Positions 15,414 to 32,500 are shown, counted from the first letter of the stretch. The stretch is DNA of 64,000 nucleotides from Dehalococcoidia bacterium (GCA_965115955.1 OZ220473.1:2389463-2453462); one strand, 5' to 3'. Made by a program: numbers and translations. The notes: generated by a model from the sequence alone, not told the origin.

Positions 15414-15511
15414 CAGCGCAGCGCCAAACCCGGAATGCTGCCGGGGGGGGGGGGGGGGGTACTCCCTCTGGATCTGTTACCGTTACTCGTGCGGAGCTTG
15501 TCTGGCATCAT
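15413..15511 (-). other. leader ORF of member A (32 codons) carrying the poly-C tract, with stop overlapping the main ATG
   Basis: ATGATGCCAGACAAG.. preceded by GGAGATGGTGAAAG. It reads [35 protein letters not shown]. The A of that TGA (15413) is the A of the main ATG. Confidence 0.5.
15443..15459 (-). repeat. homopolymeric tract G17 (C17 on the coding strand)
   Basis: Counted directly. 18 nt lie between the conserved GGAGTA and GCAGCATT flanks. Confidence 0.95.
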
Positions 15512-15619
15512 TAACTTTCACCATCTCCGAATTTCAGCCCCCGGCCAGGGAATGCCTGGAATAAGGATGCCTGATGCAGCGGTCGCAGACGCCCTGGCCC
15601 GACGCCTGTGACTGGAGCC

Positions 15620-15648
15620 AGTATATTACCTCATAGGCCAGCAGTCAA
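15620..15648 (-). promoter_or_regulatory. sigma70-type promoter of member A (TTGACT-17-TATACT)
   Basis: Minus-strand -35 at 15643-15648 and -10 at 15620-15625. Conserved in 5 of 6 copies. Palindrome CAACATCC-N9-GGATGTTG abuts the -35. Confidence 0.6.
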
Positions 15649-15753
15649 CATCCTATGCCGCCGGATGTTGCGAACGGAAGACGCGGCCGGAAGAGCGCCA
15701 TGCAGGTCAACGGCGTCGAGCAGACGGCCGAAGCCCCCGTAAGGCAAGCGCAA

Positions 15754-15787
15754 GTTGAAGGGGCGGCCCGGATGCCGCCCCTTCAAC
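15754..15787 (-). terminator. conserved GC hairpin of the family 3' unit (copy B)
   Basis: GTTGAAGGGGCGGC-CCGGAT-GCCGCCCCTTCAAC with 14-bp arms. Confidence 0.5.
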
Positions 15788-15848
15788 CTGCCAGCGAACC
15801 GGCTTTAACGCTTTATCAACGGGGGAACGCTCCCGCCGCGCTCCGGCT

Positions 15849-29214: not shown

Positions 29215-29278
29215 AGCCGGGGCGCGGCGGGAGCGTTCCCCCGTTGATAAAGCGTTAAAGCCGGTTCGCTGGCAAATC

Positions 29279-29306
29279 AGAGGGGCGGCCCGGATGCCGC
29301 CCCTTC
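29279..29306 (+). terminator. conserved GC hairpin of the family 3' unit (copy E)
   Basis: GAGGGGCGGC-CCGGAT-GCCGCCCCTTC. Confidence 0.5.
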
Positions 29307-29427
29307 AACTTGCGCTTGCCTTACGGGGGCTTCCGCCGTCTGCTCGACGCCGTTGACCTGCATGGCGCTCTTCCGGCGGTAACTTCCGGCCGCGTCTTCC
29401 GTTCGCAACATCCGGCGGCATAGGATG

Positions 29428-29456
29428 TTGACTGCTGGCCTCTGCGGTAATATACT
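29428..29456 (+). promoter_or_regulatory. promoter of member F (TTGACT-17-TATACT) with upstream palindrome
   Basis: -35 at 29428-29433 and -10 at 29451-29456. Confidence 0.6.
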
Positions 29457-29561
29457 GGCTCCAGTCACAGGCGTCGGGCCAGGGCGTCTGCGACTGCTGC
29501 ATCAGGCATCCTTATTCCAGGCATTCCCTGGCCGGGGGCTGAAATTCGGAGATGGTGAAAG

Positions 29562-32500
29562 TTGATGATGCCAGACAAGTTCCGCCCGCGTAGAGCTGAC
29601 AAATCCCCAGGGAGTACCCCCCCCCCCCCCCCGCAGCATTCCAGGGCTGGCGCTGCGATGATGGGCATCCTGCGCGGCATCGACCGCAAGCTGATCGGGA
29701 CCGCCCTGGCCGCCGCCGCCGTGGCGCTGACGCTCGTCTCTGTCCTGCTGATCCATGAATCAGCGTCGCCACAGCCCGTGAGCGCTCAGGCCTCCAGGAA
29801 TGCGATCGTCACCAAGGTGGTCATCAACGGCGCCGGCACCGCAGCGACCATAACCTGGCAGAAAGGGCCGGGCTGCTCGTCCGATACTCATTTCAGCACA
29901 GTGCATGAAGACTCCGTTGCTCAACCCGTCATTGATTTGAACGGAGCCTCCCCTGGGCAGGGCCTGTACTCGACCCCTGGAAGTTTCACCGCGCCGGGGT
30001 TGACCGCAGGCAAAAGATACAGGCTCACGATAAAAGCCACCGGCTGCGGGAATGTTGATACACGCTTCTTCTTCACAGCCACAGCCGGAACGACAATCAC
30101 CTCCACGCCAGCGCCAGCTCCCCAGGTGGTTATCACCATCAGTAAGGACGCCGGCAGTATAGTGACTGCGTTGGCATCAGATAATTTCAAGGTCGCCCAG
30201 GCCCCCCGTCCCAACGGAAACAGGGTAACCATCACTCTGCCGGATGGGGTCTCCTCTGCGCGGGTGCGCCTGAGATGGACCCCGGCAGCGTCGGGCGACA
30301 CGCCCCGGAACGCAACACTGGCGGTCGGCGAGCACACCCTCACCGGCACAACGCCCGCCACCAGCACTAATCCCGATGGCGTAGACTACAGCATAGCGGT
30401 AGCTGTGCAGACGGCGGCGAACGCTCCCAAGGTGGTTATCAGCGTTGGGAAACACACCGGCAGCGCAGTTGCGATACCATCACGTGAGTTAGCCGACAAT
30501 TTCAGCGGCGTCCGGAATAACCGTGACAAGGTAACCATCACCGTGCCGTATGGGGTATCCTCCGTTCGGGTGCGCCTGCAATGGACGCCGGTAGCGGCGG
30601 GCGACATACCCCGGGACGTAACACTGAATATCGGCGAGAACACCGTCTCCGGCAAAACGCCCGCCACCGACGCTAAACCCCAAGGCGAGAACTACAGCAT
30701 AACGGTAGTTGTGCAAGCGTCGCCCAACACGCCAACGCCCACCAACACGCCGCCGCCGGCGCCCACCAGCACGCACACCCCAGCGCCCACCAATACGCCG
30801 ACGCCAACACACACGCCGGCGCCCACCAATACGCCAGAGCCAACCAATACGCCAGAGCCAACCAATACGCCAGCGCCGACGAACACCCCGGCGCCCACCA
30901 ATACCCCAGCGCCAACCAGCACGCCAGCGCCGACCAACACGCCAGCGCCGACGAACACGCCCAACGCGCCGCCGAATGCGCCGCAGGACCGAGGCGGCAC
31001 AATAGTCGGCCCCCGTGCGATTAAGATCAAATGGGACTCCTATTCATCATCCCCGTCAGGCCCGGAGGTCACGAGCTACGAATACCAGAAAAAGAGAGGG
31101 GGCGAGTCACGCGGACCGTGGATGCCGATACCCGGTTCGGATGCGACAACCAGCGAATATACAGTTACGGATCTGGATATGGGCTATACCTGGCGGTTCA
31201 GGATCCGGGCCGTGAACTCCGCCGGCGCCAGCCCGCCTTCCCTGGAACCGGCCATAGATCTCGGCCTCAGAGCCGATACAATTACCGCCACGGCCACCGA
31301 AGACCAGATAACGGTCAGCTGGACGGTAGCAGCCAGGGATAACACCAGCAGAATCGGGTATTGGGAGGTTCAGTATATACGCCTCGGCATCGATACGTGG
31401 GCCTCGGGAGGCCGTACAACCGGGGGGTCGAATCATTACGTGTCTGGAAATGCCCGTAGCAGGACCGTAGGGATCAGTGGCGCTGTGGACGGCAGCGCGC
31501 GTCAGTATCGGGTTCGGGCGTTGAACTATAGCTATGTCGCAAGGCCTTGGTCGGCGCAGGCGGTTAGCATACGCGTCATCAACAAAGACAACGTCCCCTC
31601 GACGCCGCTCCCAACGGGGACGCCGCCGGCCAAGCCGACGGGCTTTACTGCCACGGCCGGCCTCAAAAAGGCAGATCTGGCGTGGACCGACCCCGAGGAC
31701 TCCAGCATCTTTCGGTGGGAATACCAGCAGAAAGAGGGCACGGGGGAATACGGGAGCTGGAAGATAATTTCCATGTCCACCGGGGCGACGGACAGCCACG
31801 AGGTAACTGGCCTTGCCAGCGGCACGCAGTACGCCTTCAAGATTCGGGCGGTGAACATCGACGGAAACAGTGCGGCATCGGATGAGGCGACCATCACAAC
31901 CACAGGAGACCCTCCCACCAACACGCCAACGCCGGCGCCGACCAACACGCATACGCCGGCGCCGACGAACACACCGACGCCGACGGCCACCAACACGCCA
32001 ACGCCGGCGCCAACCAACACGCATACGCCGGCGCCGACGAACACACCGACGCCAGCACCTACGAACACGCCAACGCCAGGGCCGACGAACACGCCAGGGC
32101 CGACGAACACGCCAGGGCCGACGCCCACCAACACCCCGGCGCCAACGAACGCGCCCTCCAACACGCCGACGGCCACGCCGACGCCGACGCATACGCCGAC
32201 GGCCACGCCGACGCCGACGCATACGCCGACGGCCACGCCGACGCCGACGCACACGCCGACGGCCACGCCGACGCCGACGCACACGCCGACAGCCACGCCG
32301 ACGCCGACGCATACGCCGACAGCCACGCCGACGCCAACGCATACGCCGACAGCCACGCCGACGCCAACGCATACGCCGACAGCCACGCCGACGCCAACGC
32401 ATACGCCGACAGCCACGCCGACGCCAACACATACGCCGGCGCCGACAGGTTCGCCGATGCCGTCGAACACGCCAACGGCGACCACGCCGCCGAACACGAA

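Follow-up and report, generated by a model that had tools for sequence, protein, structure and literature searches.

Poly-C tracts in the leaders of a six-gene surface-protein family of a Dehalococcoidia bacterium: candidate translational contingency loci

Six paralogous genes with a poly-C tract each

A stretch of 64,000 nucleotides (nts) from the genome of a Dehalococcoidia bacterium (GCA_965115955.1, OZ220473.1:2389463-2453462; hereafter the window) contains six paralogous genes, called A to F here, each of which carries a long run of cytosines in its leader. In this DNA of 62.5 % G+C, these runs are the only homopolymers of 8 nts or more: there are exactly six, all of them C runs on the coding strands of the paralogs, one per gene and all at the equivalent position in the leader (Table 1). 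The longest remaining run in the window measures 7 nts, no run of 8–14 nts occurs, and a C or G 12-mer is matched 32 times compared with 0.08 matches expected from shuffled sequences. Runs of G or C count as hypermutable simple-sequence repeats from roughly 8 nts upwards; this length, which characterizes contingency loci, is found in all six copies, where the C run is uninterrupted over 15 to 19 nts.

The run belongs to the nucleotide sequence rather than to the encoded protein: CCC represents only 21 % of the 552 proline codons in the paralogs, and the longest C run in their coding sequence outside the tracts is 6. The products of the six open reading frames (ORFs) are mosaic proteins with lengths from 378 to about 1,090 amino acids. 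They have a hydrophobic N-terminus of the signal or anchor type, beta-sandwich modules of the Fn3 or cadherin-like kind, proline/threonine-rich linkers made of tandem repeats, and a conserved C-terminal domain of 75 amino acids. Exposure at the cell surface, which is typical, albeit not obligatory, for the targets of contingency loci, is predicted from these domains and agrees with the nature of the homologues, which are large immunoglobulin (Ig)-rich proteins with signal peptides.

Promoters, start codons and structure of the leaders

All six genes are preceded by a sigma-70-like promoter site, TTGACT-17-TATACT (TAAACT in C), and within the window this site is confined to them. About 158 nts separate the end of its -10 hexamer from the tract, which therefore lies at about +150 in transcribed DNA and not in the promoter spacer. 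An upstream ATG is located exactly 52 nts 5' of the tract in six of the six copies, and the start of ancestral type, which is ATGATG except in A and C (ATG), follows 25–29 nts 3' of it. In A, B, D, E and F the predicted duplex with the anti-Shine-Dalgarno sequence amounts to -9.9 kcal/mol at the upstream ATG but to between -3.5 and -4.9 kcal/mol at the internal one; for reference, two other genes of the window, dnaK and trpS, score -8.2 and -3.0 kcal/mol, respectively. The pattern is reversed in copy C, with -5.6 kcal/mol at the upstream ATG versus -10.4 kcal/mol at the main ATG. Judging by the strength of its ribosome-binding site, the upstream ATG is thus the putative start codon of the five similar copies. 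The leaders of these five differ by 2.5–10 % in the regions flanking the tract, and few substitutions distinguish the upstream peptides of the different copies. On the 3' side of the tract, the sequence GCAG[C/G]ATTC is kept in five of the six copies, while D has GCAGCATTA.

The tract itself is predicted to be unpaired, and the leaders fold into less structure than their shuffled counterparts (z = +1.8 and +1.1). A search of positions 13000-34000 of the window with the Rfam covariance models (E <= 1) gave no match, neither a terminator-like site between the tract and the ATG nor alternative hairpins after the tract could be found, and both a known RNA element and a structured leader in which the poly-C would pair with upstream G-rich segments were consequently discarded. 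A switch acting through the promoter spacer can also be dismissed for the window genes, whose spacer is a fixed 17 nts of mixed sequence far upstream of the tract; a -35/-10 pair flanking the tract was sought on both strands and is absent.

Table 1. Positions of the poly-C tracts, promoter-like sites and genes of the six paralogs, and of the gene block between them, counted from the first nucleotide of the window
Feature	Coordinates	Strand	Remarks
Tract A	15443..15459	-	C17, then an extra G; upstream ORF now ends on a TGA overlapping the main ATG
Tract B	17989..18007	-	C15 (17993-18007) then TCCC, 19 nts in total; now an in-frame fusion
Tract C	19944..19958	-	C15, inside a separate upstream ORF; loop of an 8-bp hairpin
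Tract D	24679..24694	+	C16; now an in-frame fusion
Tract E	27332..27350	+	C19; now an in-frame fusion
Tract F	29617..29632	+	C16; now an in-frame fusion
Promoter-like site A	15620..15649	-	TTGACT-17-TATACT
Promoter-like site B	18167..18196	-	TTGACT-17-TATACT
Promoter-like site C	20107..20136	-	TTGACT-17-TAAACT
Promoter-like site D	24492..24521	+	TTGACT-17-TATACT
Promoter-like site E	27143..27172	+	TTGACT-17-TATACT
Promoter-like site F	29427..29456	+	TTGACT-17-TATACT
Gene A	14277..15511	-	Upstream ATG 15511, ancestral-type ATG 15413, stop 14277; 378 amino acids from the internal ATG
Gene B	15849..18059	-	Upstream ATG 18059, internal ATGATG 17963, stop 15849; 736 amino acids as fused
Gene C	18409..20010	-	Upstream ORF start 20010, main ATG 19914 with its own Shine-Dalgarno sequence (AGAGG), stop 18409; 501 amino acids, Fn3 domains
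Gene D	24627..26915	+	Upstream ATG 24627, internal ATGATG 24720; 762 amino acids as fused, Fn3 domains
Gene E	27280..29214	+	Upstream ATG 27280, internal ATGATG 27376; 644 amino acids as fused
Gene F	29565..32933	+	Upstream ATG 29565, internal ATGATG 29658; 1122 amino acids as fused, Fn3 domains
hspR(MerR)-grpE-dnaK-113-amino-acid ORF block	20701..24445	+	Between the two inverted paralog arrays

Tract length and reading frame

Each leader was rebuilt in silico with every tract length from -3 to +3 around the observed one. Copies A, B, D, E and F all cycle through the same three states as the tract grows or shrinks. In the first state the upstream ORF is in frame with the signal peptide and the tract is read as poly-proline, which is the present situation in B, D, E and F. 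In the second, which A now occupies, the stop codon of the upstream ORF is a TGA sharing nucleotides with the main ATG (TGATG). In the third, the upstream ORF overshoots the start codon out of frame and ends 95–551 nts inside the gene, a state presently found in none of the copies. For these five copies the tract thus lies, in silico, within a frame whose continuation it determines; this does not apply to copy C, where stops in all three frames precede a Shine-Dalgarno sequence and ATG of its own.

Four of the five copies capable of fusion are in frame (binomial P = 0.045). The distance between the flanks of the tract is 16 nts in D, 19 in E, 16 in F and 19 in B, compared with 18 in A, where the extra G is included. 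That the four fused copies stand exactly one codon apart (16, 16, 19 and 19 nts) speaks for a constraint on the frame and at the same time against random miscalls of homopolymer length. Tracts, promoters, start-codon contexts and frame consequences are in this sense direct observations. A preliminary description of the locus is confirmed throughout: its tract coordinates and lengths matched in all six copies on recount and its flank distances were correct, the peptide that reads through poly-proline into the signal peptide of B, D, E and F has the sequence reported there, and the frame table confirms that the upstream ORF of A is out of frame and terminates and that the tract of C belongs to a separate upstream ORF. 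The further statement that the internal ATG of most copies lacks a Shine-Dalgarno sequence holds for five of the six when duplex energies are considered. Additions to that description are the overlap of TGA and main ATG in A, the strong Shine-Dalgarno sequence of C with the stops adjoining it, and the conserved promoter 5' of the tracts, which places them in transcribed DNA.

A copy insulated from the frame

In copy C, the stop codons TAG, TAG and TGA close all three frames at most 12 nts from the main ATG, beside the AGAGG ribosome-binding site, the three stops being packed within the 17 nts that precede the ATG. Also in this copy alone, the tract forms the loop of an 8-bp hairpin (GAGAAUCU / AGGAUUCUC; window 19930-19975, minus strand). 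The 27 nts located 5' of the tract are identical to those of copy F at 8 of 27 positions, which corresponds to the random level, and the C15 is nonetheless uninterrupted. At a per-site identity of 70 %, the probability that all 15 positions of the tract survive is about 0.005. Given this retention of C15, the tract may also serve a role that does not depend on the frame.

Relatives of the family and tracts in another lineage

The DnaK protein encoded at the locus is 90 % identical to a protein from a 'Chloroflexi bacterium' metagenome-assembled genome (MAG). In the neighbourhoods of its five closest DnaK relatives the synteny is kept, with no member of the surface-protein family and no homopolymer of 8 nts or more. 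Since genomes whose DnaK is 91–92 % identical thus preserve the gene order but have neither the family nor long homopolymers, the family represents a lineage-specific expansion. In other lineages, the homologues have their N-terminus where the internal methionine stands (MNSMIGKSTGIALL..) and carry no poly-proline extension, which identifies the upstream ORF and the tract as an addition specific to the source lineage.

A profile search with the N-terminal region returned four matches, among which only one protein (P0001), 65 % identical to copy C over the first 140 amino acids, is relevant. It is encoded on a contig of a metagenome assembly in ENA (L001) that carries tandem paralogs of a multi-Fn3 surface protein. 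At positions 1884-1900 and 7726-7742 of this contig, before two of the tandem paralogs, a G17 run occupies the promoter spacer (TTGACA-A-G17-TG-GATAAT, with a perfect TTGACA). As the spacer is 20 nts long, weak or no activity is predicted for these promoters at the present tract length. The second gene is split by a frameshift into parts of 174 and 388 amino acids. The tract of L001 cannot act via poly-proline or Rho because it is on the other strand and in untranscribed DNA. Mutability in length is the only property that it has in common with the tracts of the window. This speaks for mutability as the property under selection and is the strongest indirect support for reading the tracts as contingency loci.

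Further searches contributed little. A genome scan for relatives returned only an unrelated match in Bradyrhizobium, one of two metagenome scans was empty while the other gave a single match of 32 % identity, viral scans were empty, and a search with the C-terminal domain in a word-indexed protein collection recovered only the fragments of the source genome itself.

A model of translational phase variation and its alternatives

With moderate confidence, we interpret the locus as one in which slipped-strand mispairing causes translational phase variation, each gene having three states. According to this model, each gene would form its own transcription unit, and in five copies ribosomes would load at the upstream ATG with its ribosome-binding site, translate 17 codons and then read the C tract as poly-proline. 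Being 15–19 nts long, the run would gain and lose bases at high frequency by slipped-strand mispairing, such that the cells of one population would differ in tract length, independently for each gene. The length modulo 3 would then decide between fusion, yielding the full-length protein (B, D, E and F at present), a UGA overlapping the start codon (UGAUG), which would allow termination-reinitiation (A at present), and an out-of-frame overshoot of 95–551 nts across the start codon, which would leave the gene silent (no copy at present). In this way, each surface protein of the family could be switched independently of the others, which would make the family a translational contingency locus. 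We infer here that the upstream start is used, that slippage takes place in vivo and that it affects expression.

Phase variation had already been put forward in the preliminary description and is partly supported. The anatomy fits a translational contingency locus: the tract separates the coding region of a surface-protein gene from a start codon that has a ribosome-binding site, its length differs between paralogs, and four copies are in frame. The switch would not be a simple ON/OFF one, and the expression of copy C should not depend on the frame. The UGAUG overlap could permit reinitiation, so that A, which is in this state, would not be plainly OFF.

A number of points weigh against phase variation as proposed here. 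Only one of the three frames gives a clear OFF state. Frame switching cannot explain the tract of copy C, because stops in three frames adjoin an ATG with a strong Shine-Dalgarno sequence of its own, and the C15 is kept all the same. Ribosomes might start at the internal ATG even without a Shine-Dalgarno sequence, as homologues start there and other genes of the window, such as trpS, lack one as well. The frames might also be blurred if RNA polymerase or the ribosome slipped on so long a run of C, and long-read assemblies can misjudge the length of a homopolymer by one. Length variation is known here from the paralogs of one genome (15, 15+4, 16, 16, 17 and 19), and a second strain, sought in genome, metagenome and viral collections, was not found. 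Since the flanks of the five similar copies also diverge, the differences in length between paralogs do not prove rapid slippage and are compatible with slow change.

Part of the evidence would also be explained if the upstream ORF acted as a regulatory leader irrespective of frame. Poly-proline stalling, responding to EF-P activity or prolyl-tRNA supply, and/or loading of Rho on the C run when it is untranslated would then be the relevant events, and the length of the run would be incidental. CCC encodes proline in every frame of the leader peptide, copy C keeps its C15 in spite of the stops in three frames, and the upstream ORF of A is separate as well. An unpaired tract in a poorly structured leader is what would be expected of a Rho loading site, the 3' flank is kept in five of the six copies, and leader ORFs with proline codons have a precedent in mgtL and mgtP of Salmonella. 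However, neither a peptide nor a stalling function needs a pure homopolymer, given the modest share of CCC among the proline codons of the family, and in four of the five similar copies the upstream ORF is not separate but fused in frame. The leaders also lack what defines an attenuator, namely a separate short ORF combined with a responsive RNA structure or terminator: the ORF is separate only in A and C, no alternative hairpin, terminator or Rfam match follows the tract, and folding is no better than in shuffled sequences. In the related lineage, moreover, the tract resides in a promoter spacer that is not transcribed, out of reach for a peptide or for Rho. We therefore regard a leader of this kind as unlikely.

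It is rather improbable, too, that the internal ATG is the start in all copies and that the C run is simply a tolerated, slippage-prone part of the 5' untranslated region, inherited together with a duplicated promoter-leader cassette and without effect on expression. Such a view would accommodate the homologues that start at the equivalent of the internal methionine, the several window genes without a Shine-Dalgarno sequence, the weak conservation of the upstream peptide between copies, and the recent, lineage-specific character of family and cassette, both absent from the genomes with 91–92 % identical DnaK. It does not accommodate the upstream ATG, its ribosome-binding site and the 52-nt spacing, which none of the six copies, not even the divergent C, has lost, nor an intact C tract next to a randomised 5' flank or the bias towards in-frame lengths; a translated, overlapping upstream ORF would also interfere with an internal start devoid of a Shine-Dalgarno sequence, and homopolymer tracts recur in the related lineage (L001). 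The least probable explanation, and a very unlikely one, is that the tracts are real but their differences in length, and hence in frame, are homopolymer errors of long-read sequencing or assembly, such that the true lengths may be equal. The source appears to be a metagenome-derived single-contig genome, contigs of related samples bear hifiasm-style names, and long homopolymers are established as the main residual class of error in long-read data (bioRxiv 10.1101/2020.09.16.300947). Random errors of +/-1 would nevertheless scatter the frames, whereas the four fused copies keep the frame exactly, at lengths precisely 3 nts apart; B and E both reach a total of 19 nts, and B carries a T substitution that an indel error cannot create; and the frame of A ends precisely on the TGATG overlap.

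The model of translational phase variation can be extended, although the extension as a whole is speculative and must be considered doubtful. Each gene would give three products according to length modulo 3: a protein extended by 31 amino acids including the poly-proline stretch, a protein with the ancestral short signal peptide made by UGAUG reinitiation, or nothing. Copy C would be insulated from the frame, its tract tuning reinitiation or poly-proline stalling instead, and with six copies mutating independently the genome could adopt hundreds of surface states. A sister lineage would have arrived at a similar solution by convergence, using tracts in promoter spacers, so that contingency loci would have evolved convergently in free-living Chloroflexota, presumably under pressure from phages rather than from an immune system.

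Comparison with known systems

The mutability of repeat tracts rises with their length, and genic poly-G/C tracts of 9–21 nts are responsible for the switching of Neisseria genes (PMC5953494), a range that includes the 15–19 nts of the window tracts. In pilC, lgtA and pglA of Neisseria (PMC5953494), surface-related genes with a G/C tract near the 5' end of the frame, the length of the tract modulo 3 determines whether a full-length product is made, and the window tracts would act likewise. Unlike the Neisseria tracts, those of the window precede the ancestral start and form part of an extension of 31 codons, or of an upstream ORF, that has been added to the gene, and one of the shifted frames leads to the UGAUG overlap. 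The insulation of one copy (C) from frame changes is a further difference from the known systems compared here. The host also differs, being an uncultured environmental member of the Chloroflexota.

Another parallel is provided by the poly-C tract of Gardnerella nanH3, which measures 8–14 nts, lies beside the signal-peptide region and varies within cultures (bioRxiv 10.1101/2020.09.16.300947). In both cases a poly-C run about 100 nts from the start of a gene for a cell-wall protein is read, putatively so in the window, as poly-proline and confuses the annotation of the start codon. However, nanH3 is a single gene with the tract after the signal peptide, whereas the window holds six paralogs with the tract before it, and variation is seen between paralogs alone. 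In the Opa proteins of Neisseria, CTTCT repeats are located in the region coding for the signal peptide, in up to 12 paralogs (PMC5953494). By analogy, the window genes would resemble the opa genes as an entire family of surface-protein paralogs, mosaic and recombining, in which the leader or signal region of every member contains a separate repeat tract and expression would be combinatorial. The Opa repeat is a pentanucleotide, though, the protein folds are unrelated and the niche is host-associated.

Homopolymers in promoter spacers act as switches in Bordetella fim (poly-C), in porA and opc of N. meningitidis and in the tpr genes of Treponema pallidum (poly-G). They resemble the arrangement on L001, where G17 separates the TTGACA and GATAAT elements of homologous genes, but such a transcriptional mechanism is inapplicable to the window genes because their spacer has an ordinary 17 nts and the tract is situated well 3' of the -10 hexamer. 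In Salmonella mgtL/mgtP and Rho-dependent leaders, mixed proline codons are combined with defined alternative hairpins, and the leader ORF is never fused to the main ORF. The window genes share with mgtL/mgtP a short upstream ORF with consecutive proline codons in a long, C-rich and unstructured 5' leader; they differ in the purity of the homopolymer and in the fusion of the ORFs in four copies, and alternative structures were sought in them but not found.

Mosaic genes and organisation of the locus

The 75-amino-acid domain (window 14277-14504 in A; the last ~225 nts of each paralog) is present in about 200 clusters of a representative library of 1.84 billion proteins, invariably forming the very end of large secreted, Ig-rich proteins. 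It is modelled confidently by AlphaFold, with a pLDDT (predicted local distance difference test) score of 95.7, but the model has no match in the PDB and the domain no family in Pfam, such that neither gives a clue to its function; it is possibly a domain for anchoring in, or sorting to, the cell envelope. In-frame tandem repeats encode the proline/threonine-rich linkers (window 16344-16649, 26241-26396, 32163-32438 and other linkers). A unit of 30 nts, or 10 residues, is present in 10 copies in B, 5 in D and 9 in F, and units of 18–42 nts are found elsewhere. The difference in copy number between paralogs is a second, in-frame source of size variation.

The paralogs are also mosaics of one another. 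D (24627-24800, compared with 19800-20010 and 29565-29750) combines a promoter and leader of the B/E/F type with a body of the C type, the breakpoint lying about 45 nts into the ORF, and F joins N-terminal modules of the B/E type to Fn3 modules of the C/D type. This mosaicism, as read from the sequences, indicates frequent recombination or gene conversion within the family. The tract does not serve as the recombination boundary, a possibility that the position of the breakpoint in D, inside the main ORF, rules out. Gene conversion driven by a G-quadruplex, as at pilE, was also considered; 15 G is the least that three tetrads require, but the G run is on the template strand, the unfavourable side, and the idea finds no support.

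The six genes form two arrays of three, at 14277-20136 (minus strand) and 24492-32933 (plus strand), which are mutually inverted, with shared inverted repeats that are up to 2 kb long and 92 % identical. Compared with five related genomes, the enclosed hspR-grpE-dnaK block is turned around with respect to its flanking genes, which are the same, and together with the inverted repeats this implies a past inversion by recombination between paralogs. Further downstream (38381-39835, minus strand), an ORF matches in its C-terminal part the retron Ec78-type effector ATPase PtuA (NCBIfam, E = 4e-33, below the curated cut-off), and may thus be an anti-phage defence gene near the surface-protein cluster. 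In the public gene calls for the source genome, the paralogs are represented only by C-terminal fragments of 73 amino acids (P0005, P0006), their N-terminal and repeat regions being uncalled, and the family is nearly invisible to protein-based searches.

Implications

Contingency loci based on homopolymers are textbook knowledge in host-adapted Neisseria, Haemophilus, Campylobacter, Helicobacter and Bordetella, and a search of the literature for homopolymer phase variation in Chloroflexota found no report. The proposed mechanism is a familiar one, and it would extend contingency loci to an environmental phylum, with an unusual design based on an upstream ORF. Such families must be under-counted in MAG catalogues, as starts that depend on a homopolymer confuse annotation and gene callers have missed most of the genes described here. 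If the model is correct, the alternation of fusion, UGAUG overlap and overshoot would offer a simple experimental system to study how the position of a stop codon relative to a start codon tunes expression. Moreover, bet-hedging by hypermutable repeats would extend to free-living communities, through a switchable six-gene surface family in an uncultured environmental bacterium, and the likely selective agent would be a phage or a grazer rather than an immune system.

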